A stretch of 64,000 nt of DNA from an uncultured Candidatus Rokubacteria bacterium (lineage in GTDB: Bacteria; Methylomirabilota; Methylomirabilia; Rokubacteriales; CSP1-6): assembly GCA_963747235.1 (NCBI GenBank), contig CAVVEU010000024.1, positions 448,001 to 512,000 of the forward strand, written 5' to 3'. The first letter of the stretch is position 1, and each line of letters starts with the position of its first letter. Below, piece by piece: positions 21,724 to 48,549 of the stretch. Below the pieces are notes generated by a model. The model did no database searches and was not told the origin of the DNA. It saw nothing but the letters and a program-made list of their open reading frames with translations. The position numbers and the translations under genes were made by a program.

Positions 21724-21766
21724 CGCCGGTGGTGCCGCGGTGTGCTATCGTTCTACGACGATTGTC

Positions 21767-29572: not shown

Positions 29573-30442
29573 CGGCGCCGGGCGAGGAGCGCCGGCGTAT
29601 CCTGATCGCGGGGGCCAGCGCGGGTATCGGGGCGGCGCTGGTGCGCGCCCTCGCGGCCGACGGGCACGAGGTCTTCGCGTGCGCGCGCCGGGCGGACGCG
29701 CTCCGGGCCGTGACCGACCGCGACACGCTCGCCCGCTCGCGGGTCTGCGACGTCGGGGACGAGGAGCAGGTGCGGGCGCTCTACGCCTGGGTCGTCGGCG
29801 ACCGCGCCGGCGCTGGACGGCCTGATCGTCGCGGCGGGCGCCTTCGGGGCCATCGGCGCCTTCGAGCAGACCGAGAGCGCGCTCTGGTGGGGGACGCTTC
29901 GCGCCAACGTGTTCGGGCTCTACGCGCTCGCCAAGCACGGGCTCCCGCTGCTCGAGCGGGGGACCCGGCCCCGGATCATCACCTTCTCGGGGGGCGGCGC
30001 TTTCGGCACGTTTCCGCGCTACAGCGCATATGCTACGTCCAAGGCCGCGGTGGTCCGGCTGACCGAGTGCCTGGCCGACGAGCTGCGCCCGCGGGGGATC
30101 GCGGTCAACGCGGTCGCGCCGGGGATGGTGGCGACCGAGATCCACAAGGCCACGCTCGAGGCGGGGCCGGATCGGGCCGGCGTCGAGCACTTCGAGCGGA
30201 CGCGGGCCGTCGTGAGCGCGGGAAGCGTGCCCATGGAGGTGCCGGTGGATTGTGTGCGGTTCCTGCTGTCGCGCGACGCCGACGGTCTCACCGGCAAGAC
30301 CGTCGCGGCCAATTTCGACCCGTGGCGCGGCGCCGGGTTCCGCGCCCACATCGCGGACATCACGGCCTCCGATGTGTACACGATGCGGCGCATCAATCCG
30401 GGGCACCTGCCTGACGGCCCGCTGAAGGAGCGTCTGTCGTGA
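29569..30442 (+). CDS. Classical SDR oxidoreductase (frameshift ~29810)
   Basis: AGASAGIG, FSGGGA, YATSK, VNAVAPG. Confidence 0.88.
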
Positions 30443-31053
30443 GCAACGGGGCATACATCGACCGGTTCCTGCAGGGGGTGGAGGAGATCGTGCGGAAGAT
30501 CTCCCGCCCCGACGTGGATCGCGCCATCGAGGTCCTGTACGCGGCCTGGCGCGACGGGCGCACCGTCTTCACCGCCGGCAATGGAGGGTCGGCCGGCACC
30601 GCGACCCATTTCGCGGCGGACCTGTGCAAGATGACCGCGATGCCGGGCCGGCCGCGCCTGCGGGCGCTGAGCCTGGTCGACAATATCCCGCTGGTGAGCG
30701 CGCTGGTGAACGACGACGGCTGGGACAACGTGTATACCGAGCAGCTCGAAACCCACTACCGGCCCGGCGACGTCCTCATCACGATCAGCGTGCACGGAGG
30801 CCGCGGCGCGGACCGGGCGGGCGTCTGGTCGCAGAATCTCATGAAGGCCATCGACTACGTCAAGCGCCGCGGCGGCACCACCATCGGCCTCGCCGGGTTC
30901 GACGGGGGCGCGATGCGGGAAGTGTGCGACGTGTGCGTGGTGGTGCCCTACGACACGACGCCCCACGTGGAGGGGTTCCACGTCGTCCTGCATCACCTGA
31001 TGGCGTTCTGCCTGGCCGAGCGGATCGCGGGCGGCGCCCCGATGAGGCGATGA
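30439..31053 (+). CDS. gmhA: SIS-domain phosphosugar isomerase (GmhA-like), copy 1
   Basis: GNGGSAGTATHFAADL, ALVNDDG, LAGFDGG, HVEGFH. Confidence 0.88.
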   Translation: MSNGAYIDRFLQGVEEIVRKISRPDVDRAIEVLYAAWRDGRTVFTAGNGGSAGTATHFAADLCKMTAMPGRPRLRALSLVDNIPLVSALVNDDGWDNVYTEQLETHYRPGDVLITISVHGGRGADRAGVWSQNLMKAIDYVKRRGGTTIGLAGFDGGAMREVCDVCVVVPYDTTPHVEGFHVVLHHLMAFCLAERIAGGAPMRR

Positions 31054-31583
31054 AGCGCGCGGTCTTCCTGGACCGGGACGGGGTGCTCAACCCGATGGTG
31101 GAGCGGAACGGTCGCTGGGGCGCCCCGCTGACCGCGGACGCGTTCGCCCTCTACCCGTGGACGGCCGAGTCGGTGACCCGCCTGAAGGCGGCCGGGCTTC
31201 TCTGCCTGGTCGCCACCAACCAGCCCGAGATCGCCACCGGGGAGCTGGACGTGGAGGCGCTGGAGGCCATGCACCGGCGTCTGGTCCGGGAAGCCGCGAT
31301 CGACGGCGTCTACGTGTGCCCGCACCGCGACGCCGACGGCTGCGCCTGTCGCAAGCCGCGGCCGGGCCTGCTCGAGCAGGCGGCCCGGGAGTGGGGAGTC
31401 GAGCTCGGCCGGTCCTTCCTGGTCGGCGACCGCTGGCGGGATATCGAGGCGGCCCACGCCGCCGGCTGCACCGCGATCCTGGTGGACGGTCCCGAGCCGG
31501 GGCGCGCCCGGCCGGACCACCGCGCCCGGGACCTGCGCGAAGCGACGACGACGATCCTCACCCTGATGGAGGGGTCATCATGA
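31050..31583 (+). CDS. gmhB: HAD-IIIA sugar bisphosphate phosphatase (GmhB-like)
   Basis: FLDRDGVLN, TNQP, CPH...CACRKPRPG, VGDRWRDI. Confidence 0.92.
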   Translation: MKRAVFLDRDGVLNPMVERNGRWGAPLTADAFALYPWTAESVTRLKAAGLLCLVATNQPEIATGELDVEALEAMHRRLVREAAIDGVYVCPHRDADGCACRKPRPGLLEQAAREWGVELGRSFLVGDRWRDIEAAHAAGCTAILVDGPEPGRARPDHRARDLREATTTILTLMEGSS

Positions 31584-32254
31584 AGCTGTTCGTGGACTCG
31601 GCGAACCTGGGAGAGATCGAGGAGGCGCTGGCCCGGGGCTTCGTGGCCGGCATCACCACCAACCCCTCGATCATGGCGCGGGAGGAGCGGGTGGACTTCA
31701 CCGAGCACGTGCACCGGATCATCGGGTTGATCCGGCGGTACGGCAAGGATGTGCCGCTCTCGGTCGAGGTGTCGGTGGAGGATCCGGATGAGATGCTCGA
31801 TCAGGCGCTGAAGTTCGTCGCGGCCTTCCGGTATCCCCAGCTCAGCGTCAAGGTCCCGATCGGCTGGAACGAGCTCCGGGTGATCGCGGAGCTGCGCCGG
31901 CGCGACATCCGCGTCAACTGCACGTGCTGCATGTCGTTCAACCAGGCGTACATGGCCGCGCTGGCCGGGGCCAACTACGTGAGTCTCTTCTACAACCGCA
32001 TCCGCGACACCGGCTACGACGCGCGCCTGGTGGTGGCGGAGACGGTGCGCGCCTTCCGGGAGGGCGGGGTCGAGGCGGAGGTCATCGTGGGGAGCATCCG
32101 GCATCTCTACGACGTGAACGAAGCGTTCTCCGCGGGAGCGCACATCGTCACGGTCCCGTCCAAGTTTCTGCCCCAGCTCACCCAGCATCCCAAGACCACC
32201 GAGGCGGTCAACCAGTTCCTGTCCGACTTCCGCCGCTGGAGCGACCCGGCCTAG
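31580..32254 (+). CDS. Transaldolase (short TalC/FSA family)
   Basis: LFVDSA, GITTNPS, SVEV, VKVP (Schiff-base Lys), SLFYNR, GSIR. Confidence 0.92.
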   Translation: MKLFVDSANLGEIEEALARGFVAGITTNPSIMAREERVDFTEHVHRIIGLIRRYGKDVPLSVEVSVEDPDEMLDQALKFVAAFRYPQLSVKVPIGWNELRVIAELRRRDIRVNCTCCMSFNQAYMAALAGANYVSLFYNRIRDTGYDARLVVAETVRAFREGGVEAEVIVGSIRHLYDVNEAFSAGAHIVTVPSKFLPQLTQHPKTTEAVNQFLSDFRRWSDPA

Positions 32255-32270: not shown

Positions 32271-32810
32271 GTGAAGGGACTTCTCCTCGCCCTCGCGTGC
32301 TCCGCCGCCACCGCGCTCGGGGTCACGCTGCTGTTCGCGTGCCGGGACGTCGCGCGGCGGGCGGCCGCGATGTGCGGCGTGTTCCTCGTCACCGCCCTCG
32401 TCTACCCGGTGGCGTACGGCCTGACTCCGCCCGACCTCGGCGTCCTGCCGGCGTGGCTCGTCGAGCCACGGACCTGGCTCGATGGCGCGTTCGGCCTGAC
32501 TGTGCACGCGGCGCTGTTCTTCGGCGGTTGGCTGCAGGTCTACAACCTGGCCGAGCGCGGCTTCTCGCTGCGCATCCTGATCGATATCACGGAAGCGCCG
32601 GCGCCCGTGCTCACCGGCGATGAGGTGGCGGCGCGCTACGGGGGCGGCCGCGGCGCGGCCTGGATGCGAGAGAAGCGGATCGATGGGCTGGTGGAGACCG
32701 GCCTGGCTGCGTGGCGCGACGGTCGGCTCCGGGCCACTCCCAAGGGCCGGCGCACCGCGCGGTTTTTCGGCCGGCTCAGGGCCGCGCTGCGAATCGACAC
32801 CCGCCAGTGA
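32271..32810 (+). CDS. Hypothetical membrane protein with C-terminal wHTH-like domain
   Basis: 3 hydrophobic segments, then RGFSLRILIDI...RIDGLVETGL...ATPKGR. Confidence 0.7.
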   Translation: MKGLLLALACSAATALGVTLLFACRDVARRAAAMCGVFLVTALVYPVAYGLTPPDLGVLPAWLVEPRTWLDGAFGLTVHAALFFGGWLQVYNLAERGFSLRILIDITEAPAPVLTGDEVAARYGGGRGAAWMREKRIDGLVETGLAAWRDGRLRATPKGRRTARFFGRLRAALRIDTRQ

Positions 32811-33304
32811 TGCGCGATCCGCTCACGCTGGCGCTGGGGTCCGCCCTCGCGTGGATCACGGCCGCGCTCATCGCCCACCTCGTGGTGTTCCGCCTCGTCC
32901 GGATCGAGCGGCGCGCGCGGACCCTGGTCGCTCTGTTCGGCGCGGCGGCGGTCGGGCATCTGGCGACGGTCCTCGGCTCGCTGGACGGCTGGCGGGCGGG
33001 CTACGGGCTGCTGCTGATCGGCTGCGCGTTCATCTGCTACATGCCATTCTTCTACACGGTCGCGGCTTCTCAGTCGGTGCAGATGCTCATCGCGCTGGAG
33101 GCGGCCCACGACGGGCTTTCCGTGGACGAATTGCGCCGGATGTACGCGGTCGAGGCGGTGTTCGCGGGCCGTCTCGAGACGCTCGTGGGCGCGGGCTACC
33201 TCCAGAGGACGGTGGGGGGGTACGCGCTGGCCCCCAAGGGGCGTCTGGTCGCCCGGTGCTTCCAAGTGGTGAAAACCGTGTGGAATTTGGGCCCGGGCGG
33301 GTAG
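32810..33304 (+). CDS. Hypothetical membrane protein with C-terminal wHTH-like domain (paralog-like)
   Basis: 3 TMs, then SQSVQMLIAL...RLETLVGAGYL...LAPKGR; TGATG coupling. Confidence 0.7.
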   Translation: MRDPLTLALGSALAWITAALIAHLVVFRLVRIERRARTLVALFGAAAVGHLATVLGSLDGWRAGYGLLLIGCAFICYMPFFYTVAASQSVQMLIALEAAHDGLSVDELRRMYAVEAVFAGRLETLVGAGYLQRTVGGYALAPKGRLVARCFQVVKTVWNLGPGG

Positions 33305-33328
33305 GAGAATCAGTAGGTGGCAATTTTT

Positions 33329-33348
33329 TCACCGTGGTGAGTTAAGCT
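33329..33348 (+). promoter_or_regulatory. -10 element TAAGCT with upstream TCACC-GT-GGTGA palindrome
   Basis: AT-rich gap; TAAGCT is 6 nt before ATG 33355. Confidence 0.45.
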
Positions 33349-33354
33349 TTTTTC

Positions 33355-34890
33355 ATGCCCCCGCGGACCTTCGAAGACAAGATCAAGACGCTCCCCGAGC
33401 TGGTCGCGATCTGCGACGAGCTGCGCGCGGCGGGCCAGAAAGTCGCGCAGTGCCACGGCGTCTTCGACCTGGTCCACCCGGGGCACGTCCGCCACTTCGA
33501 GGCGGCGCGGGCGGAGGGCGACCTGCTGGTCGTGACCATCACGCCCGACCGCTTCGTGAACAAGGGGCCTGGGCGCCCGGTCTTCAACCAGCGCCTGCGC
33601 GCGGAGACGGTGGCGGCCCTCGGCTGCGTGCGGTACGTGGCGGTCACCGAATCACCCTCCGCGGAGGACGTGATCCGCCAGATCCGCCCCGCGGTGTACG
33701 TGAAGGGGAGCGACTACCTCGACGCGAAGGACGACCTCACCGGCAAGATCCTCGACGAGCGTCGCGCCGTCGAGGACGGGGGCGGCCGCATCCATTTCAC
33801 CACCGAGATCGCGTTCAGCTCGAGCAACCTGCTCAACCTGCACTTCGACGTGTACCCGGAGGAGGCCCAGGACTTCCTCCGCGATTTCCGCCAGCGACAC
33901 TCCGCGGACGAGGTGATCGGCCTCCTGAAGAACCTGAAGGATCTGAAGGTCCTGGTCGTCGGCGAGGCGATCATCGACGAGTACCACTACGTGCAGTCGA
34001 TGCAGAAGTCCCCCAAGGAGCTGCTGGTCGCCACCCGCCACCTGCGGGAGGAGCACTTCGCGGGCGGCATCCTCGCCTGCGCCAACCACGTGGCCGGGTT
34101 CTGCGGGCAGGTGGACGTGGTGTCGGTGCTCGGGGCCAAGGATTCGCGCGAGAGCTTCATCCGGCGGAGCCTGAAGCCGAACGTGACCCCGCAGTTCTTC
34201 TATCACCCGGACGCGGGCACGATCGTCAAGCGCCGGTACGTCGAGCAGGCGTTCCTGAACAAGATGTTCGAGGTGTCGTTCCTGGACGACGGCGAGCTGC
34301 CGACCGAGGTGTCACGGCAGGTCGAGCGCTATCTGGCCCGGATGCTCGCCGACTACGACGTGGTCATCGTCGCCGACTACGGCCACGGCTTCCTCGGTCG
34401 CGATCTGATCCAGCTCCTGTGCTCCGAGTCGCGCTTCCTGGCCTTGAACGTCCAGACCAACAGCGCCAACCTCGGCTACAACCTCGTCACCAAGTATCCG
34501 CGCGCCCACTACGTGTGCATCGACGAGCCGGAGGTCCGGCTGGCCGCCCACGATCGCCGGAGCAACCTCGAGGAGATCATCCGGCGGCTCGCCAAGGACA
34601 TGTCGTGCCCTCGCGTGTCGATCACCCGCGGCCACAAGGGGAGCGTGGTGTACGCGGAGGGCGAGGGGTTCTCGCACGCCCCGGTGCTCTCCCGCGAGAT
34701 CGTGGACCGCATCGGCGCGGGTGACGCGTACCTGTCGATCACCGCCCCGTGCACCGCCGCGGGCTACTCGCCGGAGGTCGTTGGATTCATCGGGAACGTC
34801 GCGGGGGCGCTCGCGGTGCGCATCGTCGGCAACCGCACGCCCGTCGAGCCGGTGCCGCTCTACAAGTTCGTCTCCGCCCTCCTGCAATGA
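33355..34890 (+). CDS. Bifunctional nucleotidyltransferase / PfkB kinase, copy 2
   Basis: GVFDLVHPGH, NKGPGRP, VKGSDY, DRIGAGDAY. Confidence 0.9.
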   Translation: MPPRTFEDKIKTLPELVAICDELRAAGQKVAQCHGVFDLVHPGHVRHFEAARAEGDLLVVTITPDRFVNKGPGRPVFNQRLRAETVAALGCVRYVAVTESPSAEDVIRQIRPAVYVKGSDYLDAKDDLTGKILDERRAVEDGGGRIHFTTEIAFSSSNLLNLHFDVYPEEAQDFLRDFRQRHSADEVIGLLKNLKDLKVLVVGEAIIDEYHYVQSMQKSPKELLVATRHLREEHFAGGILACANHVAGFCGQVDVVSVLGAKDSRESFIRRSLKPNVTPQFFYHPDAGTIVKRRYVEQAFLNKMFEVSFLDDGELPTEVSRQVERYLARMLADYDVVIVADYGHGFLGRDLIQLLCSESRFLALNVQTNSANLGYNLVTKYPRAHYVCIDEPEVRLAAHDRRSNLEEIIRRLAKDMSCPRVSITRGHKGSVVYAEGEGFSHAPVLSREIVDRIGAGDAYLSITAPCTAAGYSPEVVGFIGNVAGALAVRIVGNRTPVEPVPLYKFVSALLQ

Positions 34891-35453
34891 CCCCCAAGTT
34901 CCTCGTCGAGCTCGGCGAGATGCAGTCGCGGATCGAGGCGTCCGATCACGCGGGCACCGTCCTCTCCTGCTCGGACGCGATGGACCGCGCGGTCGCGCTG
35001 GTGCGGGGCCAGACCGCGGCGGGCCGGAAGGTCATCTTCGTCGGCAACGGCGGGAGCGCGGCGATCGCGAGCCACCAGGCGGTGGACTACTGGAAGAACG
35101 GCGGCATGCGCGCGGTGTCCTTCAACGACGGCGCGCTCCTGACCTGCGTGGGCAACGACTTCGGCTACGCCCACGTGTTCGAGAAGCCGATCGAGATGTT
35201 CGCCGATCCCGGCGACGTGCTGATCGCGATCTCGAGCTCCGGCCGGTCCGAGAACATCCTGCGAGCCGCGGCCGCCGGCGCGCGGGCCCGCTGCCGCGTC
35301 ATCACGCTCTCCGGCTTCGGGGTCGACAACCCGCTCCGCCGCCTGGGCGAGCTGAACTTCTACCTGCCTTCGGACTCCTACGGGTACGTGGAGATCACCC
35401 ACCTGGCGATCTGCCACTGCATCCTCGACACGATCATCGCCGCTCGCGGTTGA
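34887..35453 (+). CDS. SIS-domain phosphosugar isomerase (GmhA-like), copy 2
   Basis: GNGGSAAIASH, TCVGNDFGY, ISSSGRSEN, YGYVEITH. Confidence 0.9.
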   Translation: MTPKFLVELGEMQSRIEASDHAGTVLSCSDAMDRAVALVRGQTAAGRKVIFVGNGGSAAIASHQAVDYWKNGGMRAVSFNDGALLTCVGNDFGYAHVFEKPIEMFADPGDVLIAISSSGRSENILRAAAAGARARCRVITLSGFGVDNPLRRLGELNFYLPSDSYGYVEITHLAICHCILDTIIAARG

Positions 35454-35463
35454 ACCCGGTGTT

Positions 35464-35558
35464 CCGGGGCTGGGCCTGCCTCTTGCATGCATGTTCTGCG
35501 CTGGAAGTGCGTCTGTCCGATCTCCGGGTCGGATCCGGGGGCTCAGGCCCGGCGCCGG
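35464..35558 (+). other. Predicted structured intergenic element (multi-stem)
   Basis: 15-nt imperfect inverted repeat enclosing a 7-bp stem with a c(UCCG)g tetraloop. Confidence 0.35.
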
Positions 35559-35592
35559 GGGCGGCGGCTAACTCAATAAAGGACTGATACTT

Positions 35593-36591
35593 ATGAGCAA
35601 ATTGCATGTCCTGGTGACGGGTGGGGCCGGCTACGTCGGGGCCGTGCTGGTGCCCAAGCTGCTGGCCCAGGGCCATCGGGTCACGGTCCTCGATCTCTAC
35701 ATTTTCGGCGACCAGGTGCTCAAGGCTGTCAGTGGGCACCCGGGCCTCCGGGAGGTCAAGGGAGACATCCGCGATCGGCGGCTCCTCGAGCGCGAGCTCA
35801 CCGGCGTCGATGCGGTCATCCACCTCGCCTGCATCTCGAACGATCCGAGCTTCGAGCTGAACCCGGAGCTGGGCAAGTCGATCAACTACGACGCGTTCCT
35901 GCCCCTCGTGGAGATCGCGAAGGACAAGGGCGTGCGGCGGTTCATCTACGCCTCGTCGTCGAGCGTGTACGGCATCAAGGACGAGGAGAACGTCACCGAG
36001 GATCTGCCGCTCCAGCCGCTGACCGACTACTCGAAGTACAAGGCCCTCTGCGAGGAGGTGCTCCTGAAGGCGCAGGCTCCGGGGTTCACGAGCCTGATCC
36101 TGCGGCCGGCCACCGTGTGCGGGTACTCCCCGCGGCTGCGGCTCGACCTGGCGGTCAACATCCTCACCAATCTCGCGGTGAACACCGGGCGCATCACCGT
36201 GTTCGGGGGCGCCCAGAAGCGGCCCAACATCCACATCGAGGACGTGACCGATCTCTACGTGCGGTCGCTCGAGTGGCCCGAGGAGAGCATCGACGGCCAG
36301 ATCTTCAACGCGGGCTACGAGAACCACACCGTGTCCCAGCTCGCCGACATGGTGGCCGGGAGTCGTGGGCCGCGAGAAGGTGGACATCGTGACCACGCCC
36401 ACCGACGACCACCGCTCGTACCACATCTCGTCGGAGCGCATCAAGCGGATGCTGGGATTCGAGCCGAGCCACAGCGTCGAGGAAGCGGTGCGCGACCTCT
36501 CGCGCCGCCTACGGCCAGGGATGCGATCCCCAATTCGATGACCGACAAGCGGTACTACAACATCAAGACCATGTTGGAGGTGAAGCTCTAG
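35593..36591 (+). CDS. Extended SDR NDP-sugar epimerase/dehydratase, paralog of 23835 (compensating frameshifts ~36360/36500)
   Basis: TGGAGYVG, LACISNDPSF, YSKYK, RPATVCGYSPRLRLDL. Confidence 0.9.
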   Translation: MSKLHVLVTGGAGYVGAVLVPKLLAQGHRVTVLDLYIFGDQVLKAVSGHPGLREVKGDIRDRRLLERELTGVDAVIHLACISNDPSFELNPELGKSINYDAFLPLVEIAKDKGVRRFIYASSSSVYGIKDEENVTEDLPLQPLTDYSKYKALCEEVLLKAQAPGFTSLILRPATVCGYSPRLRLDLAVNILTNLAVNTGRITVFGGAQKRPNIHIEDVTDLYVRSLEWPEESIDGQIFNAGYENHTVSQLADMVAGSRGPREGGHRDHAHRRPPLVPHLVGAHQADAGIRAEPQRRGSGARPLAPPTARDAIPNSMTDKRYYNIKTMLEVKL

Positions 36592-36592
36592 C

Positions 36593-37717
36593 ATGCACGT
36601 TCCCTATTCGTACCTGCGCGACCAGTTCGCCGACTCCGAGCCCATCCTCCGCGACATCAAGGGGCTGCTCGAATCCACCCAGTTCACGCTGGGTCCGCCG
36701 GTGGCCGAGTTCGAGGGGCGCTTCGCGCGCCTCTGCGGGGCGCGGCACGCGATCGGGGTGGGCACCGGCACCGACGCGCTCTCGCTCTCGCTCAAGGCGC
36801 TCGGAGTCGGGCCGGGCGACGAGGTGATCACCGCCGCGAACACCTTCATCGCCACCGCGGGCGCCATCGTCCAGGCGGGCGCCCGGCCGGTGTTCGTGGA
36901 CGTGCTCGACGACTTCAACCTCGATCCGGGGAAGATCGAGGCGGCCATCACCCCCCGGACGCGGGCGCTGCTGCCCGTGCACTACGCAGGCCAGCCCGCC
37001 AAGATGGGTCCGATCCTCGAGATCGCGCAGCGCCGCGGGCTGCCGGTGGTCGAGGACGCCTGCCAGGCCATCAGCGCGGCCATCGACGGTCGGCTCGTGA
37101 GCAACTTCGGCGTGGCGGCCGGCTTCAGCCTGCACCCGCTCAAGAACCTCAACGTCTGGGGTGACGGAGGGGTGATCGTCACCAACTCCGCCGAGCTGGA
37201 CGCGAAGCTCCGGCTCCTGCGCAACCACGGCCTCGTGAATCGCGACGAGGTGGAGATCTTCGGGCACAACTGCCGGCTCGACACGCTGCAGGCGATCGTG
37301 GGCAACCACCTGATCGGCGACACCGAGGCGATCACCGCCGCCCGCATCAAGAACGCCCTCGCGCTCGACGCGGGGCTTCGGCCGCTGGCGCCGCGGGTGC
37401 GGGTGCCCGCGCGGCTGCCCAGCGAGCGGCACGTCTTCCACCTCTACATGTTCGAGGCGGACGATCGCGACGGGCTCCTCGCCTGGCTGCAGCAGAAGGA
37501 GATCGAGGCGAAGATCCACTATCCGGTCCCGCTCCACCTGCAGCCGGCGAGCCGGCGCCTCGGCTACAAGGAGGGCGACTTCCCGGTGGCGGAGCGGCAG
37601 GCCAAGCGGATCATCACGCTCCCGGTCCACCAGCACCTCCGCGCCGACCAGGTGAAACACATGATCGATTCCATCGCCGAGTTCTACGCCGATGAGCGCT
37701 TGCGCGAAGAGCCTTAG
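36593..37717 (+). CDS. DegT/DnrJ/EryC1/StrS aminotransferase
   Basis: GTGTDAL, EDACQA, SLHPLKNL, GDGG. Confidence 0.93.
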   Translation: MHVPYSYLRDQFADSEPILRDIKGLLESTQFTLGPPVAEFEGRFARLCGARHAIGVGTGTDALSLSLKALGVGPGDEVITAANTFIATAGAIVQAGARPVFVDVLDDFNLDPGKIEAAITPRTRALLPVHYAGQPAKMGPILEIAQRRGLPVVEDACQAISAAIDGRLVSNFGVAAGFSLHPLKNLNVWGDGGVIVTNSAELDAKLRLLRNHGLVNRDEVEIFGHNCRLDTLQAIVGNHLIGDTEAITAARIKNALALDAGLRPLAPRVRVPARLPSERHVFHLYMFEADDRDGLLAWLQQKEIEAKIHYPVPLHLQPASRRLGYKEGDFPVAERQAKRIITLPVHQHLRADQVKHMIDSIAEFYADERLREEP

Positions 37718-38830
37718 ATGAAACACGCCATGCACGTGAAGTACATGGATCTGCCGCGCCAGTTCGAGGACGGAACGATCGTCGCGCGGGTGGTGGACGA
37801 GTTCAAGCGGTGCCAGTTCGTCCTCGGGCCCCAGGTGGCCGAGTTCGAGCGGCGGTTCGCCCGGGTGTGCGGGGCGGCGCACGCGCTCGGCCTGAACTCG
37901 GGAACCGACGCGCTGTTCCTCGCCCTCCGGGCCCTCGGCGTGGGGGCCGGCGACGAGGTGATCACCGCGCCCAACAGCTTCGTGGCGACCGCGGGCGCCA
38001 TCGTGATGACCGGCGCGACACCGGTCTTCGTGGACGTCAATGCCGAGTACCTCATGGATCCCGCTCGTCTCGAGGACGCGATCACCCCGCGCACGCGCGC
38101 GGTGATCCCGGTGCATCTCAACGGCAACCCGGTCGACATGCGTGCGCTCGGCGTGGTCGCGACGCGGCACGGGCTGCACGTCATCGAGGACTGCGCCCAG
38201 GCGGTGGGGGCGCTGGTGGACGGCAAGGTGACGGGCTCCATCGGCGTCGCGGGAGCGTTCAGCCTGTTCCCGCTGAAGAATCTCGGGGTGGCCGGGGACG
38301 GGGGCATGCTCACCACCAATTCGGCCGAGCTCGCCGAGCGCGTGCGCCTGCTGCGCCACCACGGCCTGCGCAACCGGGACGAGTGCGAGACCTGGGGCTA
38401 TAACAGCCGACTCGACACGATCCAGGCCATCGTGGGCGACGCGGTGCTCGACACGCTCGAGCGCCTGACCGACGCGCGGATCAAGCACGCCGCGTTCTAC
38501 GACGCGGCGCTGGCCGATCTGGCCCCGGACGTGGTCGTGCCGCCCCGCCGCGACGGAGTGCGGCAGGTCTTCCACCTCTACGTGGTGCAGGCGGAGTCGC
38601 GCGACCGGCTGCGCGAGTTCCTCGAGGCGCGCGGGGTGGAGACCAAGATCCACTACCCGATCCCGATCCATCTCCAGAAGGCGGCTCGGGGCCTCGGCTA
38701 CAAGCGCGGCGCGTTCCCGGTCTGCGAGGCGCAGAGCGAGCGGATCGTCTCGCTGCCGGTGCACGAGTACCTGACCGAGGACGAGCAGGGGTACGTGGTC
38801 GAGCGTATCCGGGAGTTCTACGGGCGATGA
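37718..38830 (+). CDS. DegT/DnrJ/EryC1/StrS aminotransferase (tandem paralog)
   Basis: NSGTDAL, EDCAQA, SLFPLKNL, GYNSRLD. Confidence 0.93.
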   Translation: MKHAMHVKYMDLPRQFEDGTIVARVVDEFKRCQFVLGPQVAEFERRFARVCGAAHALGLNSGTDALFLALRALGVGAGDEVITAPNSFVATAGAIVMTGATPVFVDVNAEYLMDPARLEDAITPRTRAVIPVHLNGNPVDMRALGVVATRHGLHVIEDCAQAVGALVDGKVTGSIGVAGAFSLFPLKNLGVAGDGGMLTTNSAELAERVRLLRHHGLRNRDECETWGYNSRLDTIQAIVGDAVLDTLERLTDARIKHAAFYDAALADLAPDVVVPPRRDGVRQVFHLYVVQAESRDRLREFLEARGVETKIHYPIPIHLQKAARGLGYKRGAFPVCEAQSERIVSLPVHEYLTEDEQGYVVERIREFYGR

Positions 38831-39868
38831 GCCGCGCGACGACGACGAAGCGAGCCGCGCGCCGGCGCCCCGCGGCACCGCGCAAGATCGACGCCGGGCT
38901 CCGCGGCCTGGCTCCCGCGCTCCTGGTGGACCTCTACGTGACGATGCGGCGCATCCGGCGGGCCGAGGAGACGATCGCGGCCCTCTATCCCGAGCAGGAG
39001 ATCCGCTGCCCGACCCATCTCTCGATCGGCCAGGAAGCGGGCGCGACCGGTGTCTGCCTCGCCCTGCGCCTGGCCGACACCGCGGTGAGCACGCATCGCT
39101 GCCACGCCCACTACATCGCCAAGGGCGGCGAGCTGCGCGCCATGTTCGCCGAGCTGTACGGGCGCGCCACCGGGTGCTGCGGGGGCAAGGGCGGCTCCAT
39201 GCATCTCACCGCTCCCGAGGTGGGCATGCTGGGGGCGTCCGCGATCGTGGCGGGATCGGTGCCGCTCGCGCTCGGCATCGCGCTGGCCGCGCGGATGGCG
39301 GGCACCGACGAGGTGGCGGTCGCCTTCTTCGGCGACGCCGCGATGGAGCAGGGGGTGACGCACGAGAGCCTGGCGCTGGCGGCCCTGCGGCGCCTTCCGG
39401 TCCTCTTCGTGTGCGAGAACAATCTCTACGCGACCAGCACCCCGCTCCGGACGCGGCAGGCGGGCAGCGACTTGGCCGTCCGCGCGGCGGGCCACTGGCT
39501 GCCGGGCAGTCACGGTGGACGGCAATGACGTGGTCGCGGTATACCGGGCGGCCCGGACCGCGGTGGAACGGGCGCGGCGCGGGCAGGGCCCCACCCTGAT
39601 CGAGGTGAAGACCTATCGGTTCCGCGAGCACGTGGGCCCGAACTACGATATCGATCAGGGCTACCGCACCCAGGCCGAGCTGGACCGCTGGATGGCGCGG
39701 GATCCGGTGGGCGGCCTGGCGCGACGCCTCGAGCGCGCGGGGCTGCTTCCGGCCGCGCGGCGGGCCGTGCTCGACGCCCAGATCGAGGCCGAGGTCGCGG
39801 ACGCGGTCGCCTTCGCCAAGTCGAGCCCATTCCCCGAGCCGGCCGCGCTGTTCGCGGACGTGGACTAG
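38827..39868 (+). CDS. ThDP-dependent E1 alpha-like subunit, copy 2 (frameshift ~39500)
   Basis: HLSIGQEA, GKGGSMH, GDAAMEQG...CENN, TYRFREHVG. Confidence 0.9.
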
Positions 39869-39882
39869 GGAGAGTCATCCGC

Positions 39883-40923
39883 ATGCGCCAGCTCAAGTAC
39901 CGCGAAGCGATCGACGAAGCGACGCGCCAGGCCATGGCCAAGGACGAGCGGATCTTCGTCATGGGTGTGGGCGTGGACGACCCGAAGGGCATCTTCGGCA
40001 CCACGCGCGGGGCGTTCGAGCAGTTCGGGCCGACCCGCGTGTTCGACACCCCGCTGTCGGAGGCGGCGCTGACCGGCATGGGGGTCGGGGCGGCGATGCG
40101 CGGGTTCCACCCGCTCCTCGTCCACGCCCGCAACGACTTCCTGCTGCTGACGATGGACCAGATCGTGAACAACGCGGCCAAGTGGCGCTACATGTCCGGC
40201 GGCAAGCTCAAGGTGCCGCTCACCATCCGCGCCATCATCGGCCGGGGCTGGGGCCAGGCGGCGCAGCACTCGCAGAGCCTGCAGGCCATGTTCGCGCACG
40301 TGCCCGGCCTGACCGTGATCATGCCCACGACGCCCGCGGACGCCAAGGGACTGCTCATGACCGCGCTCAGCAGCGACAGCCCGGTCATCTGTCTCGAGCA
40401 CCGGTGGCTCTACGACAAGAGCGGCCCGGTGCCGGAGGATCCGTACTACACCCCGTTCGGGGTGGGCTCGGTGGTGCGGCCGGGGCGGGACGTCACGATC
40501 GTGGCCGTCTCGCACATGGTGCTGGAGGCGCTGCAGGCGGCCGAGGCGCTCGCCGCCGAGGGTATCGAGGCCGAGGTGATCGACCCCCGGACCCTCCGGC
40601 CGCTGGACTCCGGGCTGATCTGCCGCTCCGCGGCCAGGACCGGGCGCCTGGTCATCGCGGACACCGGCTGGCGCAGCTACGGGGTCAGCGCGGAGATCGC
40701 GGCGCGTGCGGCCGAGGAGCTGTGGGGGGTGCTGAAGGCGCCCATCAAGCGGGTCGCGCTCCCCGACGTGCCCACGCCGGGCAGCTCGGTCCTCGAGGCG
40801 GCGTACTATCCGGGAACCCGCGAGATCGTCGCCGCGGTGAAGCAGTGCCTGCAGGCCCCGGCGGGCGCCAGCGCGGACGGAGCCATGCCGAGCAGCCGGA
40901 AAGAATTCGAGGGGCCATTCTGA
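39883..40923 (+). CDS. ThDP-dependent E1 beta-like subunit, copy 2
   Basis: FDTPLSE, DQIVNNAAK, GWGQAAQHSQ, LEHRWLY. Confidence 0.92.
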   Translation: MRQLKYREAIDEATRQAMAKDERIFVMGVGVDDPKGIFGTTRGAFEQFGPTRVFDTPLSEAALTGMGVGAAMRGFHPLLVHARNDFLLLTMDQIVNNAAKWRYMSGGKLKVPLTIRAIIGRGWGQAAQHSQSLQAMFAHVPGLTVIMPTTPADAKGLLMTALSSDSPVICLEHRWLYDKSGPVPEDPYYTPFGVGSVVRPGRDVTIVAVSHMVLEALQAAEALAAEGIEAEVIDPRTLRPLDSGLICRSAARTGRLVIADTGWRSYGVSAEIAARAAEELWGVLKAPIKRVALPDVPTPGSSVLEAAYYPGTREIVAAVKQCLQAPAGASADGAMPSSRKEFEGPF

Positions 40924-40924
40924 C

Positions 40925-42094
40925 ATGACGATCTCCGCGAACGTGGTCGACTACGAGCAGGTCACCGGGAGCTACGAGAGCACGCTGAACACGCAGCTCC
41001 GGGGCTTCCGGGGCGGGGCGCGCTTCCTGGAGCACTGGGTCCACGATCCGGACCCGGTCAAGAGTGTCATCAACATGATCGAGGCGGCGGCCACCGACGG
41101 GCTGGCCGACGTCACCGTCCTCCTGGGAGCCCGGAGCCAGGCGGCCCTCGACCTGGGGCGGCTCGATGAGCTGGCCGGCGCCCTCGGCGAGGTGACGACG
41201 GAGGCACAGGAGGGCGGGCTCGCCCTCACGGTCCGCTTCACCAGCGCGGCGGCTGCCGCGCCCGGGCTCGGAGCGGAGGCGCGCGACCGCGCGCGGCGGG
41301 CCCGCGAGGCCCGTGACGCGCGCCTGCGCGCGCAGGCCGGGCCGGCGCCGGCGCCGGCCCGCGACGGGCTCCATCCGGTTTACCGCGAGGCGGTGCGCCA
41401 GATCCTCTCGGGCGCGCTGACGCACGAGGGCCTGGTGGCCACCATGCCGGGCGTGGAGCGGCTCTCGATCGCGCGCGACGGCTGGGTCCTCGAGGCCTTC
41501 GTGGACAGCGCGACGCACCGGGTCCGGGTGGCCCGCCATCGCGGCGCGCGGAAAGAGACGCGCGCCCTCCTCGAGGGGCTGTGCGCGATGATGGAGGACA
41601 AGCCGCTGATCGAATGCGCCGACCACGCGGTGATTCGCCTGGAGTACCGGCTGCGCGATCGTCTCCAGGAGCGTCCGGTGGCCGGCCTCGTCACGCCCGA
41701 GAGTGTCGAGCCGGCCTTCGGGCCGCTCGGCGTCGCGGTGCGCGGGTTGCTGGCCGAATACCGGCGCCGAACCGGCTACGACGTGATCGAGAACCGGTTC
41801 GATCCCGAGCCCTCGGCGGGCTGGAAGGCGCTCACCGCGGAGCAGCGAATGGCTCAAGTGCAGGCCGCGCTGGACGTTCTCGTGGCGCAGCATGGGCTTC
41901 GACCGGGCGACGTGGTCTGCACGCACGTGGATCGCAGCACCCGGACCACGGTCGAGGTGCGCGCCGAGCTTCCCGCGCGGTCGAAGGCCGCCTTGATGAT
42001 GGACCTCGAGCGAGGCCTCAAGGCCCGCGTCGAGTCGATGCTGCACCTGTATCAGGCAGAGATGCACGACAAGAACAAGATTCGGCGGCTCTGA
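40925..42094 (+). CDS. Hypothetical protein with apparent degenerate IscU/NifU-N-like and NifU-C-like domains
   Basis: LEAFVDSATHRVRVARHRG...LLEGLCAMMEDKPLIECA resembles IscU; C-terminal GDVVCTHVD...MDLERGLKARV resembles NifU-C. Confidence 0.55.
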   Translation: MTISANVVDYEQVTGSYESTLNTQLRGFRGGARFLEHWVHDPDPVKSVINMIEAAATDGLADVTVLLGARSQAALDLGRLDELAGALGEVTTEAQEGGLALTVRFTSAAAAAPGLGAEARDRARRAREARDARLRAQAGPAPAPARDGLHPVYREAVRQILSGALTHEGLVATMPGVERLSIARDGWVLEAFVDSATHRVRVARHRGARKETRALLEGLCAMMEDKPLIECADHAVIRLEYRLRDRLQERPVAGLVTPESVEPAFGPLGVAVRGLLAEYRRRTGYDVIENRFDPEPSAGWKALTAEQRMAQVQAALDVLVAQHGLRPGDVVCTHVDRSTRTTVEVRAELPARSKAALMMDLERGLKARVESMLHLYQAEMHDKNKIRRL

Positions 42095-42113
42095 AAGAGG
42101 AGTACCCCACACC

Positions 42114-43238
42114 ATGACGCAGGCACTGACCGACCACACCGACCTCATCCTGGACGGCACCAAGATCCAGTGGCATCTCGACCGGGTGCGCGCCTGGGAG
42201 CGGGGCGAGCGCATCGCGCCGATCACCATCGACATGGCGCTGACCCGAGCCTGCAACTTCGCGTGCCACTTCTGCTACGCCATGCTCCAGGAGAACGACC
42301 GCCAGACGATCACCAAGGAAGTGATCACCGACTTCCTCGACGACTGCGCGGAGATCGGGGTCAAGGGCATCAGCCTGGTCTCGGACGGGGAGAGCACGAT
42401 CTCCCCGGTCTTCGTCCACGCGGTGGTCCACGGCAGCGAGGTGGGCCTCTCCATGGCCTGCGGCACCAACGGCTTCATCTTCAACCGCCGCAAGCTGGAG
42501 GAGGTGCTGCCGCACCTGACCTACCTGCGCATCAACATCTCGGCGGGCGAGCGCAAGCGGTACTCGGAGATCATGGGCGTCAAGGAGGAATGGTTCGATC
42601 GGGTGGTCCAGAACATCCGCGACATGGTGGACATCAAGAAGCGGGAGCACCTGCCGGTGACGATCGGCCTGCAGATGGTGCTGGACCCGCGCTACGGAGA
42701 CCAGATCATGCCGCTGGCCCGCCTGGGCAAGGAGCTGCGGCCGGACTACCTGGTCATCAAGCACTGCAGCGACGACGAGGACGGCACCCTCGGGGTGGAC
42801 TACCAGGCCTATGACCAGCTCTACGACACCCTCAAGGAAGCGGAGGCGCTTTCCGACTCCGAGTACTCGGTGAAGGTGAAGTGGTCGAAGATCGAGGCCA
42901 AGGGCAAGCGCAACTACCAGCGCTGCTACGGGCCCCCGTTCATGCTGCAGATCTCCGGCTCGGGCCTGATCGCGCCCTGCGGGATGCTCTTCAACGAGCG
43001 CTACAAGAAGATGCACATCGGCAACATCTGCGAGCAGCGGTTCAAGGACATCTGGAAGTCCGACCGCTACTGGGAGGTCGTCAACTACCTGGCCTCGCCG
43101 GAGTTCAACGCCCAGAAGATGTGCGGCACCCTCTGCCTGCAGCACAAGGTCAACGAGTATCTCGACGGCTACAAGAAGGGCCTGCACATCCTCCAGGAGC
43201 CCACCGGGCGTCCGCCGCAGCACCTCGACTTCGTCTAG
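42114..43238 (+). CDS. Radical SAM protein with SPASM/twitch domain
   Basis: CNFACHFC, DGES, GTNG; CYGP...GLIAPC...GNI...CGTLC; SD GAGGAG. Confidence 0.92.
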   Translation: MTQALTDHTDLILDGTKIQWHLDRVRAWERGERIAPITIDMALTRACNFACHFCYAMLQENDRQTITKEVITDFLDDCAEIGVKGISLVSDGESTISPVFVHAVVHGSEVGLSMACGTNGFIFNRRKLEEVLPHLTYLRINISAGERKRYSEIMGVKEEWFDRVVQNIRDMVDIKKREHLPVTIGLQMVLDPRYGDQIMPLARLGKELRPDYLVIKHCSDDEDGTLGVDYQAYDQLYDTLKEAEALSDSEYSVKVKWSKIEAKGKRNYQRCYGPPFMLQISGSGLIAPCGMLFNERYKKMHIGNICEQRFKDIWKSDRYWEVVNYLASPEFNAQKMCGTLCLQHKVNEYLDGYKKGLHILQEPTGRPPQHLDFV

Positions 43239-43251
43239 GAAAGGCGCCGCC

Positions 43252-43974
43252 ATCAAGCCGACCATCTCCTTCGTCATCCCGGCGCTCAACGAGGAAGCCA
43301 ACATCGCGGACGCGGTGCGCGAGGCGGCGGCCGCGATGGGCGATCGCTTCCGGGACTACGAGCTGCTGCTGTTCGACGACGGCTCCACCGATCGGACCGG
43401 CGCGATCATGGACCGGCTGGCCGCCGCCGACCCCGGCCATATCCGGGTGACCCACAACCCCACCCCGAGAAACCTGGGCGGGGTGTACAAGCAGGGGATC
43501 GCGCTGGCCCGCATGGACTACATCCTGATGGTCCCCGGGGACAACGAGAACCCGGGGCACGCCCTCCAGGCCCCCTTCGACGCCATCGGCGGCGCCGACA
43601 TCGTGCTGCCGTACCCCGTCAACTCGGCCGTACGCGGCTTCGCCCGCCACACGGTGTCCCGCGTCTATGTCGGGCTGCTGAACCGCCTGTTCGGCCTCCG
43701 GGTTCGCTATTACAACGGCACGGTCATCCACCGCACCGCCAACCTCAAGACGCTCCCCATCAAGACCTCGAGCTTCGCCTACCAGGCCGAGATCCTGATC
43801 AAGCTCCTGTGCGCCGGGAAGACCTTCGTCGAGGTCCCCATCCGGATCGACCCGCCCAAGGAGGGCCGGCGCTCCCGGGCCTTCCGCTGGAAGAACATGA
43901 TGCAGGTCGGCCGCACGCTGGGGGACCTGTTCCTGGATATCCGCGTCCGCCGCCGCCTCCACGCCGCCCGCTGA
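43252..43974 (+). CDS. GT2 glycosyltransferase (paralog-like to 21001)
   Basis: ISFVIPALNEE, FDDGSTD, VPGDNE; the conserved N-terminus begins at ATC 43252. Confidence 0.88.
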   Translation: MKPTISFVIPALNEEANIADAVREAAAAMGDRFRDYELLLFDDGSTDRTGAIMDRLAAADPGHIRVTHNPTPRNLGGVYKQGIALARMDYILMVPGDNENPGHALQAPFDAIGGADIVLPYPVNSAVRGFARHTVSRVYVGLLNRLFGLRVRYYNGTVIHRTANLKTLPIKTSSFAYQAEILIKLLCAGKTFVEVPIRIDPPKEGRRSRAFRWKNMMQVGRTLGDLFLDIRVRRRLHAAR

Positions 43975-44010
43975 CCGCTTCCCCGGCCCCCGGGCCGGCT
44001 TCCCGGGAGT

Positions 44011-45113: not shown

Positions 45114-46409
45114 GTGAACACCATCGGCGTGGTGGGCATGGGCTATGTCGGCCTCACCATGGCGGTGGCCCTGGCCCGCAAGGGCTTCACCGTGCACGGG
45201 GTGGACGCCTCGCCTACCGTGCTCGCCGCGCTCTCGGAGGGCCGCGCGCATCTCTTCGAGCCCGGCGTCGAGGAAGGGCTCGCCGCATTTCGAGGCGAGC
45301 GCCTGCACGTCGGCCGTGAGCTGCCGGCCGGTGGCGTCGACGCGGTCATGATCTGCGTCTCGACGCCCACGAATCCGGCCACCCACGCGCCCGAGCTGGA
45401 GAACCTCCGCGCGGCGGCGCGTCACGTGGCCGAGCGCTGCGCGCCCGACACGCTCGTGATCGTCCGCTCCACCGTGCCGGTGGGGGCGAGCCGCAAAGTG
45501 GTGCTGCCGGAGCTGACCGGCCGATGGGGCGCAAGCGTCCGCCTGGCGTTCGCCCCGGAGCGGACCATCCAGGGCCAGGCCCTGCGGGAGCTGGACGAGC
45601 TGCCCCAGGTGGTCGGCGGCGTGGATGCGGCGAGCCGCGACGCGGCGGCCGCGCTGTTCTCCCGCGTCACGCGCCGGATCGTGCCCGTCGGGTCGCTCGA
45701 GGCCGCGGAGCTCGTGAAGCTGGTCAACAACTGCCACACCGACCTGATCTACTCCTACGGCAACGAGGTCGCGCTGATGGCCGAGCAGTGGCGCCTCGAT
45801 CCTCTGGAAATCATCCGCGCCGCCAACCTCGACTACCCGCGGCCGGATGTGGCCAAGCCCGGCTACGTCGGCGGCGGCTGCCTCTCGAAGGATCCCTATA
45901 TCCTGATGAGCGCCGCGCGCGCCGCCGGGTACACGCCCTGGCTGGTCGGCCAGGCGCGTGCGCTCAACGAGCACCTGCCGCTCCGGGTGGCCGAGCGGAT
46001 GGTGGCCCTGATCCGCGAGACGCGCGGCAGCGCGGAGGGCGCCCGGCTCGCGGTGCTGGGCTGGGCCTACAAGGGCTGGCCGCCCACCGACGACATGCGC
46101 GGGGCGCCCATCCACGCGATGCTGCCGATCTTCCGCGCGGCCGGATTCGACCTGCGCGGGCACGACTACCTGGTGGCGCCGGACGTCATCCGCGGGCTGG
46201 GCGCCACGCCGGTGAGCGCGGAAGCGGCCTGGGACGGGGCGGACGCGGTGCTGGTCATCACGAACCATCCGGAATATGCCAAGCTCGACCTGCCCGCGCG
46301 GCTTGCCGTGATGCGCCGCCCGGCGGTGCTCTTTGACTCCTGGCGCATCCTGGACGAGGACGCGGCGCGGCGGGCGGGCGTGCGCTACGCGGGCATCGGG
46401 TATGGCTAG
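45114..46409 (+). CDS. Nucleotide-sugar 6-dehydrogenase (WecC/WbpA-like)
   Basis: GMGYVG, RSTVPVG, APER, ELVKLVNN, VGGGCLSKD (catalytic Cys present). Confidence 0.92.
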   Translation: MNTIGVVGMGYVGLTMAVALARKGFTVHGVDASPTVLAALSEGRAHLFEPGVEEGLAAFRGERLHVGRELPAGGVDAVMICVSTPTNPATHAPELENLRAAARHVAERCAPDTLVIVRSTVPVGASRKVVLPELTGRWGASVRLAFAPERTIQGQALRELDELPQVVGGVDAASRDAAAALFSRVTRRIVPVGSLEAAELVKLVNNCHTDLIYSYGNEVALMAEQWRLDPLEIIRAANLDYPRPDVAKPGYVGGGCLSKDPYILMSAARAAGYTPWLVGQARALNEHLPLRVAERMVALIRETRGSAEGARLAVLGWAYKGWPPTDDMRGAPIHAMLPIFRAAGFDLRGHDYLVAPDVIRGLGATPVSAEAAWDGADAVLVITNHPEYAKLDLPARLAVMRRPAVLFDSWRILDEDAARRAGVRYAGIGYG

Positions 46410-47385
46410 AATCCTCGTACTGGGCGGCGCGGGCTTCATCGGCGGCCACCTGGCCGCGCGCCTGGCCGCCGAAGGTCATGCGCTCACCCTGGTGGACGAT
46501 CTCTCGCGCGGCCGCCGCGACGCGGCGCTCGAGGCGCTCACCGCGCGGCCCAATGTCCGCTTCGTCGAGGCGGATCTCACGCGGGCCGGCGCCCTCGACG
46601 CGCTCCCGAGGGACTGGGACCAGGTGTACATGCTGGCCGCCGTGGTCGGGGTGCGCAACGTCGAGACGGATCCCGCGCGGGTGGTGCGGGTGAATACTCT
46701 GTCGCTGCTCCACCTCCTCGACTGGATGCCGGGTCGCGGCGAGGTCCTCTTCTTCGCGTCCACCAGCGAGACCTATGCCGGCGGCGTCGCCGCGGGGCAC
46801 GTGCCGGTGCCGACGCCCGGAGGCGGTGCCGCTCGGCGTGCCGGACGTGGCCGCGCCGCGCTTCGCCTACGCGGCGAGCAAGCTGCTGGGGGAGGCGGCG
46901 GTGATCCACACCGCCCGCGCCCGCGGGCTCCGCGCGGTGATCGGCCGCTTCCACAATGTCTACGGCCCGCGCATGGGCGCCGACCACGTCATTCCCGAGC
47001 TGTCGCTGCGCGCGCTCCGTCGCGAGGATCCGTTCCGGGTCTTCGGGGCCGAGCAGCGCCGCGCCTTCTGCCACGTGGCCGACGCGCTCGAGGCGATGAC
47101 GCGGCTGCTCGCCACCGAGGCGGCGTGGGGGCAGGTGGTGAACATCGGCAACGACGCGGAGGAGACCCAGATCGGCGAGCTGGTGGACCTGATCCTCCGC
47201 ACCGCGCGCTTTGCGCCGCGGGTGGACAACCGGCCCGCGCCCGCGGGCTCGGTGGCGCGCCGCTGCCCGGACATCGGCCGCCTCCGCTCGCTGACCGGCT
47301 TCGCTCCCAAGGTCTCGCTCGAGGCGGGGGTCGCCGAGACCTTCGCGTGGTACCGCGAGTGGTCTGCGCACGAGGGAGCCGGCCG

Positions 47386-47389
<4 letters not shown>
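46402..47389 (+). CDS. Extended SDR, NDP-uronate decarboxylase/epimerase-like (frameshift ~46820)
   Basis: GGAGFIG, ASTSETY, PRFAYAASK, RFHNVYGPRMG, RRCPDI. Confidence 0.85.

Positions 47390-48545
<1,156 letters not shown>

Positions 48546-48549
<4 letters not shown>

Follow-up and report, generated by a model that had tools for sequence, protein, structure and literature searches.

X389, a predicted IscU/Nfu-fold protein lacking cluster ligands, encoded next to a radical SAM enzyme in a sugar-nucleotide cassette of Candidatus Rokubacteria

The protein X389 is encoded in a 64,000-nucleotide stretch of an uncultured Candidatus Rokubacteria genome (positions 448,001 to 512,000 of contig CAVVEU010000024.1, assembly GCA_963747235.1; hereafter the window). 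It consists of 389 amino acids, and its gene directly precedes that of a radical S-adenosylmethionine (SAM) enzyme. With modest confidence, we regard X389 as an accessory or adaptor subunit of this enzyme, one that neither catalyses a reaction nor holds a cluster. The observations behind this reading are the predicted folds of X389, the loss of the ligands by which true scaffolds hold iron–sulfur (Fe–S) clusters, as well as the linkage of the two genes; from these we infer the binding and the role of each module. If true, a large family has both halves of NifU in cluster-less form and has been retained to serve one radical SAM enzyme as its own partner, which would make it a clear example of a "pseudo-scaffold."

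Fold prediction

An exhaustive profile search places 980 clusters (at 50% identity) in the X389 family at E ≤ 0.001, 728 of them at E ≤ 1e-10. The word-indexed search yields 74 proteins, all named at most "hypothetical protein," and the closest named relatives belong to Methylomirabilota. Neither the Pfam models (E ≤ 0.01) nor the NCBIfam models match X389, and Pfam searches with five distant homologues at E ≤ 1 return nothing but chance matches. A profile built from 21 homologues gives a single chance-level match to the PDB sequences (E 0.27), and a search of the ESM Atlas returns unnamed clusters only. The preliminary description of this locus, made by eye from the sequence, knew of no described system of this form. 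A literature search in full text—with subscription journals outside its coverage—likewise found no paper on the X389 family or on the enzyme–partner pair.

The AlphaFold2 model of X389, based on an alignment of 21 sequences, has a mean predicted local distance difference test score (pLDDT) of 80.4 and a predicted template modelling score of 0.61, and the pLDDT exceeds 90 over most of residues 151–240. The chain divides into a small N-terminal α/β domain, a linker, two further domains, and a C-terminal tail (Table 1). The N-terminal domain carries the motif FLEHWVHDPDPVKSVINMIEAA at residues 34–55, where the preliminary description had pointed to it. A TusA/SirA-like sulfur carrier, with a two-layer α/β fold and a conserved Cys in a CPxP motif, was considered for this domain, which was left unassigned; that does not make its fold a new one. 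The Ala-rich linker reported earlier corresponds to an Ala/Arg-rich stretch at approximately residues 107–150; two short homologues, P0072 and P0073, have a gap in its place. The middle domain features the IscU/NifU-N fold in the predicted model: Of the 33 rows listed by a Foldseek search of the PDB, about 31 belong to IscU, ISCU2, SufU, or NifU-N chains, with E values from 1e-3, probabilities up to 1.00, and target TM-scores (template modelling scores) up to 0.66. The best structural match of the predicted C-terminal domain is an Nfu domain. The resemblance to NifU-N that had been noticed in the letters alone is hence recovered at the level of the predicted structure, and so, tentatively, is that to NifU-C. 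Judged by this model, X389 would carry an IscU-type fold first and an Nfu-like domain after it, and would have either descended from the NifU architecture or converged on it.

The tail is conserved to an extent that its predicted structure does not reflect: D382 (94 of 94 sequences) and R387 (90 of 90) are invariant, followed by L389 (66 of 67), R388 (70 of 82), and N384 (82 of 94), yet the mean pLDDT of residues 381–389 is 32. An invariant but disordered tail is what would be expected of a docking peptide and suggests such a role.

Comparison with true scaffolds

Reference alignments were assembled from genomes of the same phylum, with 18 sequences of true IscU and 15 of true Nfu. C36, C63, and C106 are invariant in the former and C38 and C41 in the latter. 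X389 has exactly the three scattered cysteines that had been counted before—C220, C231, and C332—and no CxxC. Over approximately 95 distinct family sequences, no Cys is invariant, which justifies the earlier label "degenerate"; position 220 is Cys in 84 of 95 sequences and Ser in six. The invariant residues of the family are R26, W38, V39, G254, W300, E362, D382, and R387. In the register given by hhalign, which is the one to be expected, Cys36, Asp38, and Cys63 of IscU fall on A183, D185, and K210 of X389. The columns of A183 and K210 are never mostly Cys, the ligand-equivalent columns being occupied by Ala/Glu/Thr/Ser and Ser/Gly/Thr/Asp.

Aligned as a profile, the X389 family reaches a probability of 1.2% (E 0.044) with IscU and of 0.17% with Nfu, the latter in the wrong region. 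These values provide no sequence-level evidence of homology, and the case is therefore one from the predicted fold. Since X389 fails both the ligand and the profile comparison, it is not to be filed in either family. With IscU/NifU-N/SufU (PF01592; Archaeoglobus fulgidus IscU, PDB 4eb5 chain C), it shares the α + β IscU fold in prediction, but the identity is 12 to 16%, Pfam gives no match, none of the three Cys ligands is left, and the gene belongs to a sugar cassette instead of accompanying a cysteine desulfurase. In comparison with Nfu/NifU-C (PF01106; Arabidopsis CnfU, PDB 2z51), the domain of X389 is devoid of the CxxC cluster-binding motif. Elsewhere in its own genome, PF01592 is matched by three genes, none of them X389, and PF01106 by two; because these true IscU and Nfu genes lie apart, housekeeping Fe–S assembly is independent of X389.

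X389 could alternatively be a genuine carrier of Fe–S clusters or metal, which binds through non-Cys ligands (H234, E230, E362, and D382) or by a cluster shared at its interface with the enzyme and which loads or repairs the auxiliary cluster of the enzyme. The combination of IscU and Nfu folds in one chain, as predicted here and as found in NifU, would suit such a carrier, as would the conservation of H234 (93 of 95), and of E362 and D382 (94 of 94 each) and the presence of C220 in 84 of 95. The neighbouring enzyme has invariant Cys residues for at least two clusters, and NFU-type carriers are reported to serve radical SAM enzymes, lipoyl synthase being an example (PMC9585516). Nevertheless, the absence of any invariant Cys, the non-Cys residues at the ligand-equivalent columns, the Nfu-like domain without CxxC, and the complete IscU and Nfu genes of the own genome render a carrier decidedly unlikely. 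Cluster ligation without any Cys is, to our knowledge, unprecedented for IscU and Nfu folds.

Domains that have lost their ligands are known from working carriers. E. coli NfuA consists of an Nfu domain and a degenerate, Cys-less A-type domain that targets clients including radical SAM enzymes, and the second Nfu copy of CnfU is a degenerate targeting domain of an Fe–S carrier. The concept would be the same in X389: a ligand-less domain derived from a scaffold and kept as a docking module for radical SAM clients. However, NfuA retains a functional CxxC Nfu domain and has many clients, whereas both scaffold-type domains of X389 are degenerate and the linkage is to one enzyme clade. By analogy, X389 would at most do what the degenerate targeting domains do in Fe–S carriers.

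Conservation of the gene pair

The open reading frame (ORF) of X389 is intact over 389 codons, as had been proposed, according to both the ORF list and the translation. The spacing reported earlier is likewise exact, with 1 nt between the end of the E1 beta gene (40923) and the ATG of X389 and 19 nt between the stop codon of X389 and the start of the radical SAM gene (42114). Shine–Dalgarno-like sequences lie upstream of both X389 and the radical SAM start, and no terminator-like site was found on the plus strand between 32000 and 46500. The guanine–cytosine (GC) content by codon position of X389 (0.77/0.49/0.91) is gene-like for a genome of 70% GC. Because the protein is conserved over its full length in 74 database proteins, it is taken as a real gene and not as a chance ORF. 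X389 and the radical SAM gene are each single-copy in their own genome. The C-terminal part of X389, the intergenic gap, and the radical SAM gene are jointly covered by a contig of 3119 nt and approximately 94% identity from a metatranscriptome library (X15)—although a contig of this origin is no proof of transcription, and stretches that a run leaves uncovered carry no meaning.

A forward scan with the X389 family alignment against one genome per species gave 53 loci. These span Methylomirabilota, Myxococcota, Bdellovibrionota, Planctomycetota, Acidobacteriota, Elusimicrobiota, Alpha-, Beta-, and Gammaproteobacteria, and one metagenome-assembled genome (MAG) labelled Flavobacteriaceae. A homologue of the radical SAM enzyme with 72 to 95% identity is present in 48 of them. 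In 40 of these, the two genes are within 400 nt of each other: the enzyme follows X389 immediately on its strand in 33 and is adjacent in another manner in seven more. Three of the five loci without the enzyme are contig ends. The reverse scan, started from the enzyme and evaluated for the best 80 of 165 matched stretches, contributed 78 new loci, 70 of which contain an X389 homologue as detected by a hidden Markov model, usually immediately upstream of the enzyme. Cultured, non-pathogenic carriers among the loci of the two scans are Azospirillum oryzae, Azospirillum oleiclasticum, and Nisaea denitrificans. Merging of identical sequence leaves 100 groups: 87 with both genes, which for the most part adjoin each other, five with the protein only, and eight with the enzyme only. 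The linkage of X389 homologues to this radical SAM clade, on which the preliminary description depended, is thereby borne out. Among 101 genomes of the phylum—a tally that takes in one unpublished genome, G029, without a match—the protein occurs in two and the enzyme in three, the third enzyme copy being cut by a contig end.

Several observations weigh against a dedicated subunit. The IscU and Nfu assignments themselves come from the predicted model. In seven contigs (L103, L112, L125, L127, L128, L130, and L131), the enzyme occurs with no X389 within approximately 4 to 6 kb, and no homologue can be detected in their several kilobases of flanking sequence even at an E value of 100. Two are labelled Arcobacteraceae, and the others Sulfurimonas, Helicobacteraceae, Elusimicrobiaceae, Omnitrophota, and Rhodospirillaceae; L125 has a split transketolase directly upstream of the enzyme instead. 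X389 is hence not universally required nearby, and these exceptions argue against obligate pairing. Contig L034 carries the protein followed by an ATP-binding cassette (ABC) transporter and no enzyme, and in L044 the protein's neighbour is a Radical_SAM/SPASM paralogue that shares only 25% identity. Mean pairwise identity amounts to 74% in the enzyme, to 53% in both DegT and E1 beta, to 40% in the HldE-like protein, and to 28% in the C-terminal part of X389; a fast-diverging protein beside a near-frozen enzyme is unusual for a tight obligate pair. In a mirror-tree comparison, the distances of protein and enzyme correlate with r = 0.66, compared with 0.54 to 0.72 for the other cassette genes (DegT, E1 beta, and HldE-like). 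Since this value does not rise above that of the other genes, it contains no signal of specific coevolution, and the test was dropped as evidence.

The same data bear on another explanation, in which X389 is itself a ligand binder or an enzyme of the pathway—for example, one that binds or isomerizes the heptose nucleotide—and in which adjacency reflects consecutive steps without a complex. This would account for the co-occurrence of X389 with the whole cassette at the correlations just given and for the occurrence of the enzyme without X389, and it would fit the presence of a few invariant or nearly invariant polar residues (R26, H234, E362, D382, and R387). On the other hand, no catalytic family is matched by sequence, the predicted folds are protein–protein docking modules and not enzymes, the mean identity is only 28%, and the order of partner and then enzyme recurs in the 33 closely spaced loci. 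An independent step is therefore considered unlikely, and the accessory subunit is retained as the favoured reading.

Radical SAM genes with 94 to 96% identity are found in L001, L002, and L123 (also in L054 and L056) on MAGs labelled Nitrosotalea (an archaeon), Deferrimicrobiaceae, and Limnocylindria. For these cassettes, mis-binned contigs seem more likely than recent transfer.

The radical SAM enzyme

Within a surface-sugar cassette that occurs in many phyla, the enzyme ranks with the best-conserved genes, at identities of 60 to 95% across those phyla. C47, C51, and C54 are invariant and form the CX3CX2C motif. Beyond the core, invariance is limited to C271, C289, C337, and C341, with C218 coming close to it. 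A full SPASM motif comprises seven Cys for two auxiliary clusters; the four invariant residues thus fit one auxiliary cluster of twitch-like type and not the full SPASM set. No NCBIfam model, equivalogs included, reaches its cut-off with the enzyme. Its solved sequence relatives include SkfB (E 1e-7), DesII (E 1.6e-5), and PqqE (E 3.9e-5), in each case by matches to the core only. With the DesII/BtrN type (DesII PDB 8hzv/8hzy), the enzyme shares the CX3CX2C motif, one four-Cys C-terminal set, and the sugar-nucleotide context, but the similarity to DesII—one of four solved sequence relatives—is limited to the core (27 bits). We know of no dedicated IscU-fold partner of either DesII or BtrN.

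The identity of these relatives raises the question of whether X389 is the substrate, with the SPASM-type enzyme modifying its disordered tail. The SPASM family is rich in peptide modifiers, SkfB and PqqE are among the nearest solved relatives, and the tail motif D-x-N-x-x-R-R-L is nearly invariant and unstructured in the model. However, the enzyme stands among sugar-nucleotide genes in every lineage examined, and DesII is equally close. Its four invariant post-core Cys are those of a twitch-like protein as in small-molecule enzymes, for which BtrN is the comparison. Moreover, the enzyme is present without X389 in the seven contigs named above, and the tail is free of the Cys, Tyr, and Trp residues that are usually cross-linked. 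A substrate role is accordingly held to be very improbable, and X389 remains best described as a likely partner of the enzyme.

The GC content of the window falls to 0.657 over 42001–44000, although the GC content at third codon positions of the radical SAM gene is 0.97. This dip is due to the frozen enzyme sequence, rich in Lys, Asn, Ile, Phe, and Tyr, and not to foreign DNA.

Modular architecture and proposed mode of action

As an accessory subunit, X389 would bind the radical SAM enzyme by its IscU and Nfu surfaces, which serve for partner and client docking in true scaffolds, together with the C-terminal tail. Such binding would stabilize the enzyme, aid its maturation, or shape its substrate site and, if it takes place, would be a reason for which the enzyme, if produced by itself, might lack activity or stability. 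The N-terminal domain is separable and may tether the thiamine pyrophosphate (TPP)-dependent E1 enzyme.

That the two parts are modules can be appreciated from the architectures in the 100 groups: 62 feature one chain, 19 are split exactly at the linker into an ORF of approximately 100 amino acids for the N-terminal domain and one of approximately 240 for the IscU/Nfu part, six have the C-terminal part only (five of them from Sulfuricurvum), eight have neither part, and five are cut. The N-terminal domain is found in 58 of 61 contigs with an E1 pair and in two of 10 with a split transketolase. This contrast hints at a relation between the N-terminal domain and E1, but it is confounded by phylogeny, the transketolase contigs being mostly from Campylobacterota.

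In Campylobacterota cassettes (L120:1873–2979 and L125:2618–3712), a second, paralogous Radical_SAM/SPASM gene is present, the split transketolase replaces the E1 pair, and the NifU-like protein is reduced to its C-terminal part or is absent. L125 additionally encodes a pyruvate-kinase-barrel protein.

The contrast in the N-terminal domain and the start of X389 1 nt after E1 beta would also be compatible with the TPP-dependent E1 and not the radical SAM enzyme as the main partner of X389, which would then occupy the position of an E2 gene and use its N-terminal domain as an E1-binding module. Apart from the phylogenetic confounding, 25 contigs with X389 show no TPP gene within the stretch examined, and the Bdellovibrionota protein adjoins the enzyme with no E1 nearby. 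X389 as the E2 component of a 2-oxoacid dehydrogenase was rejected, as Pfam detects no lipoyl, E3-binding, or acyltransferase domain at E ≤ 0.01. Fusions of X389, sought among proteins of 770 to 2195 amino acids, were not found, which is weak evidence by the tool's own rating. We regard E1 as the main partner as quite improbable. An apparent fusion of the N-terminal domain to a 443-amino-acid ORF in L129 was discarded as an artefact, since it is a stop-to-stop reading in the alternative frame of another gene.

A bolder variant of the accessory subunit makes X389 the organizer of a three-part machine, in which the N-terminal domain would hold E1, the IscU/Nfu half and the tail would hold the radical SAM enzyme, and a TPP-bound two-carbon unit would meet a heptose-nucleotide radical. 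Such a machine would constitute an undescribed route to a branched or extended sugar; it is a speculation to which only a small probability is given.

The sugar cassette

The neighbours named in the preliminary description—a tandem pair of DegT genes, the E1 pair of alpha and beta subunits, and a gene with Radical_SAM and SPASM domains—are all recognized by Pfam (Table 1). E1 alpha, however, is not intact: It is frameshifted by a 1-nt insertion near 39507 relative to L001, L002, and L003. The extra base is missing in contigs of the runs X2, X3, and X15 but is kept in a 2226-nt contig of X1 that differs from the window at 57 positions. The frameshift may hence be a real allele of the lineage rather than an assembly slip.

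Table 1. Features of the X389 locus, in coordinates of the window
Feature	Position	Strand	Evidence and remarks
Reversed-order HldE-like bifunctional enzyme	33355..34890	+	CTP_transf_like at residues 34–124, PfkB at 198–496; in 60 of 100 contigs
NAD-dependent sugar epimerase/dehydratase (short-chain dehydrogenase/reductase, SDR)	35593..36591	+	Pfam Epimerase 134.8 bits; in 61 of 100 contigs
Two tandem DegT/PseC-like aminotransferases	36593–37717, 37718–38830	+	DegT_DnrJ_EryC1 345 and 362 bits; best NCBIfam model, PseC, below cut-off
E1 alpha-like, frameshifted in assembly	38827..39868	+	E1_dh positions 2–189 of 300 in frame 1 only; rest in next frame
TPP-dependent E1 beta-like	39883..40923	+	Pfam Transket_pyr, Transketolase_C; NCBIfam pyruvate dehydrogenase (PDH) E1 beta subfamily 324 bits
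X389 gene, 389 amino acids	40925..42094	+	Intact ORF; ATG start, stop included
X389 N-terminal α/β domain, residues 1–107	40925..41245	+	R26, W38, V39 invariant
X389 Ala/Arg/Pro-rich linker, residues 108–150	41246..41374	+	pLDDT <60; length variable; dispensable
X389 predicted IscU/NifU-N-fold domain, residues ~151–291, without cluster ligands	41375..41797	+	H234 in 93 of 95, G254 invariant, P258 in 88 of 95
X389 Nfu-like α/β domain, residues ~298–378, without CxxC	41816..42058	+	W300, E362 invariant; R340 in 87 of 94
X389 conserved C-terminal tail	42059..42091	+	Motif [KR]-D-x-N-[KR]-[IL]-R-R-L; predicted disordered in monomer
Radical SAM enzyme, SPASM/twitch-type C-terminal domain, 374 amino acids	42114..43238	+	Pfam Radical_SAM (PF04055) 50.3 bits, cut-off 29.5; SPASM (PF13186) 31.4 bits

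Across lineages, the cassette contains a SIS isomerase, in some cases a HAD phosphatase as well, an enzyme that combines cytidylyltransferase-like and PfkB parts in reversed order, an SDR protein, one or two DegT proteins, and a thiamine enzyme that is either an E1 pair or a split transketolase. This gene set suggests a nucleotide-activated heptose that undergoes oxidation and amination, receives or is lengthened by a two-carbon unit, and is the target of a radical enzyme. Judged from their sequences, the genes indicate that the cassette tailors a nucleotide-activated heptose. The sugar-modifying context that had been proposed therefore stands and is narrowed by the neighbouring genes to a nucleotide-heptose, and the enzyme–partner pair, if it is one, would be a starting point for identifying the modified heptose.

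A related front end is known from the O-antigen genes CBU0674–CBU0678 of Coxiella burnetii, which share the SIS isomerase, the SDR, and the reversed-order kinase/nucleotidyltransferase with the cassette; the reversed-domain HldE-like CBU0678, together with a phosphoheptose isomerase and two SDR genes, is reported to be needed for full-length lipopolysaccharide, and CBU0678 for phase I lipopolysaccharide (PMC5843353). There are no Coxiella records among the 53 loci and the best 80 loci returned, and X389 and the enzyme were not found there, no search having been aimed at Coxiella.

Approximately 10 to 20 kb upstream and still within the glycan region, the window contains a second, intact E1_dh gene (21740–22801), a second reversed-order cytidylyltransferase-like/PfkB gene (25835–27364), a SIS isomerase (30439–31050), and a transaldolase (31157–32254). 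The intact upstream copy of E1 alpha could compensate for the frameshifted one. Two ORFs, 34721–35587 (288 amino acids) and 32620–33345 (241 amino acids), have no Pfam or NCBIfam match; the former overlaps the end of the HldE-like gene by approximately 170 nt and has homologues in few loci, so that its start or its reality is uncertain. In the Bdellovibrionota locus L013, a 438-amino-acid protein with a homogentisate-dioxygenase-like N-terminal (cupin) domain (6682–7995) is encoded directly upstream of the X389 homologue; an MMPL transporter follows the homologue, and no thiamine enzyme is found within the stretch examined. Downstream of the radical SAM gene in the window, an ORF of 738 amino acids (46333–48549) contains half of an Epimerase domain (residues 27–150) and a complete DegT domain (368–733) and may represent a fusion, a pair of overlapping genes, or one more frameshift.

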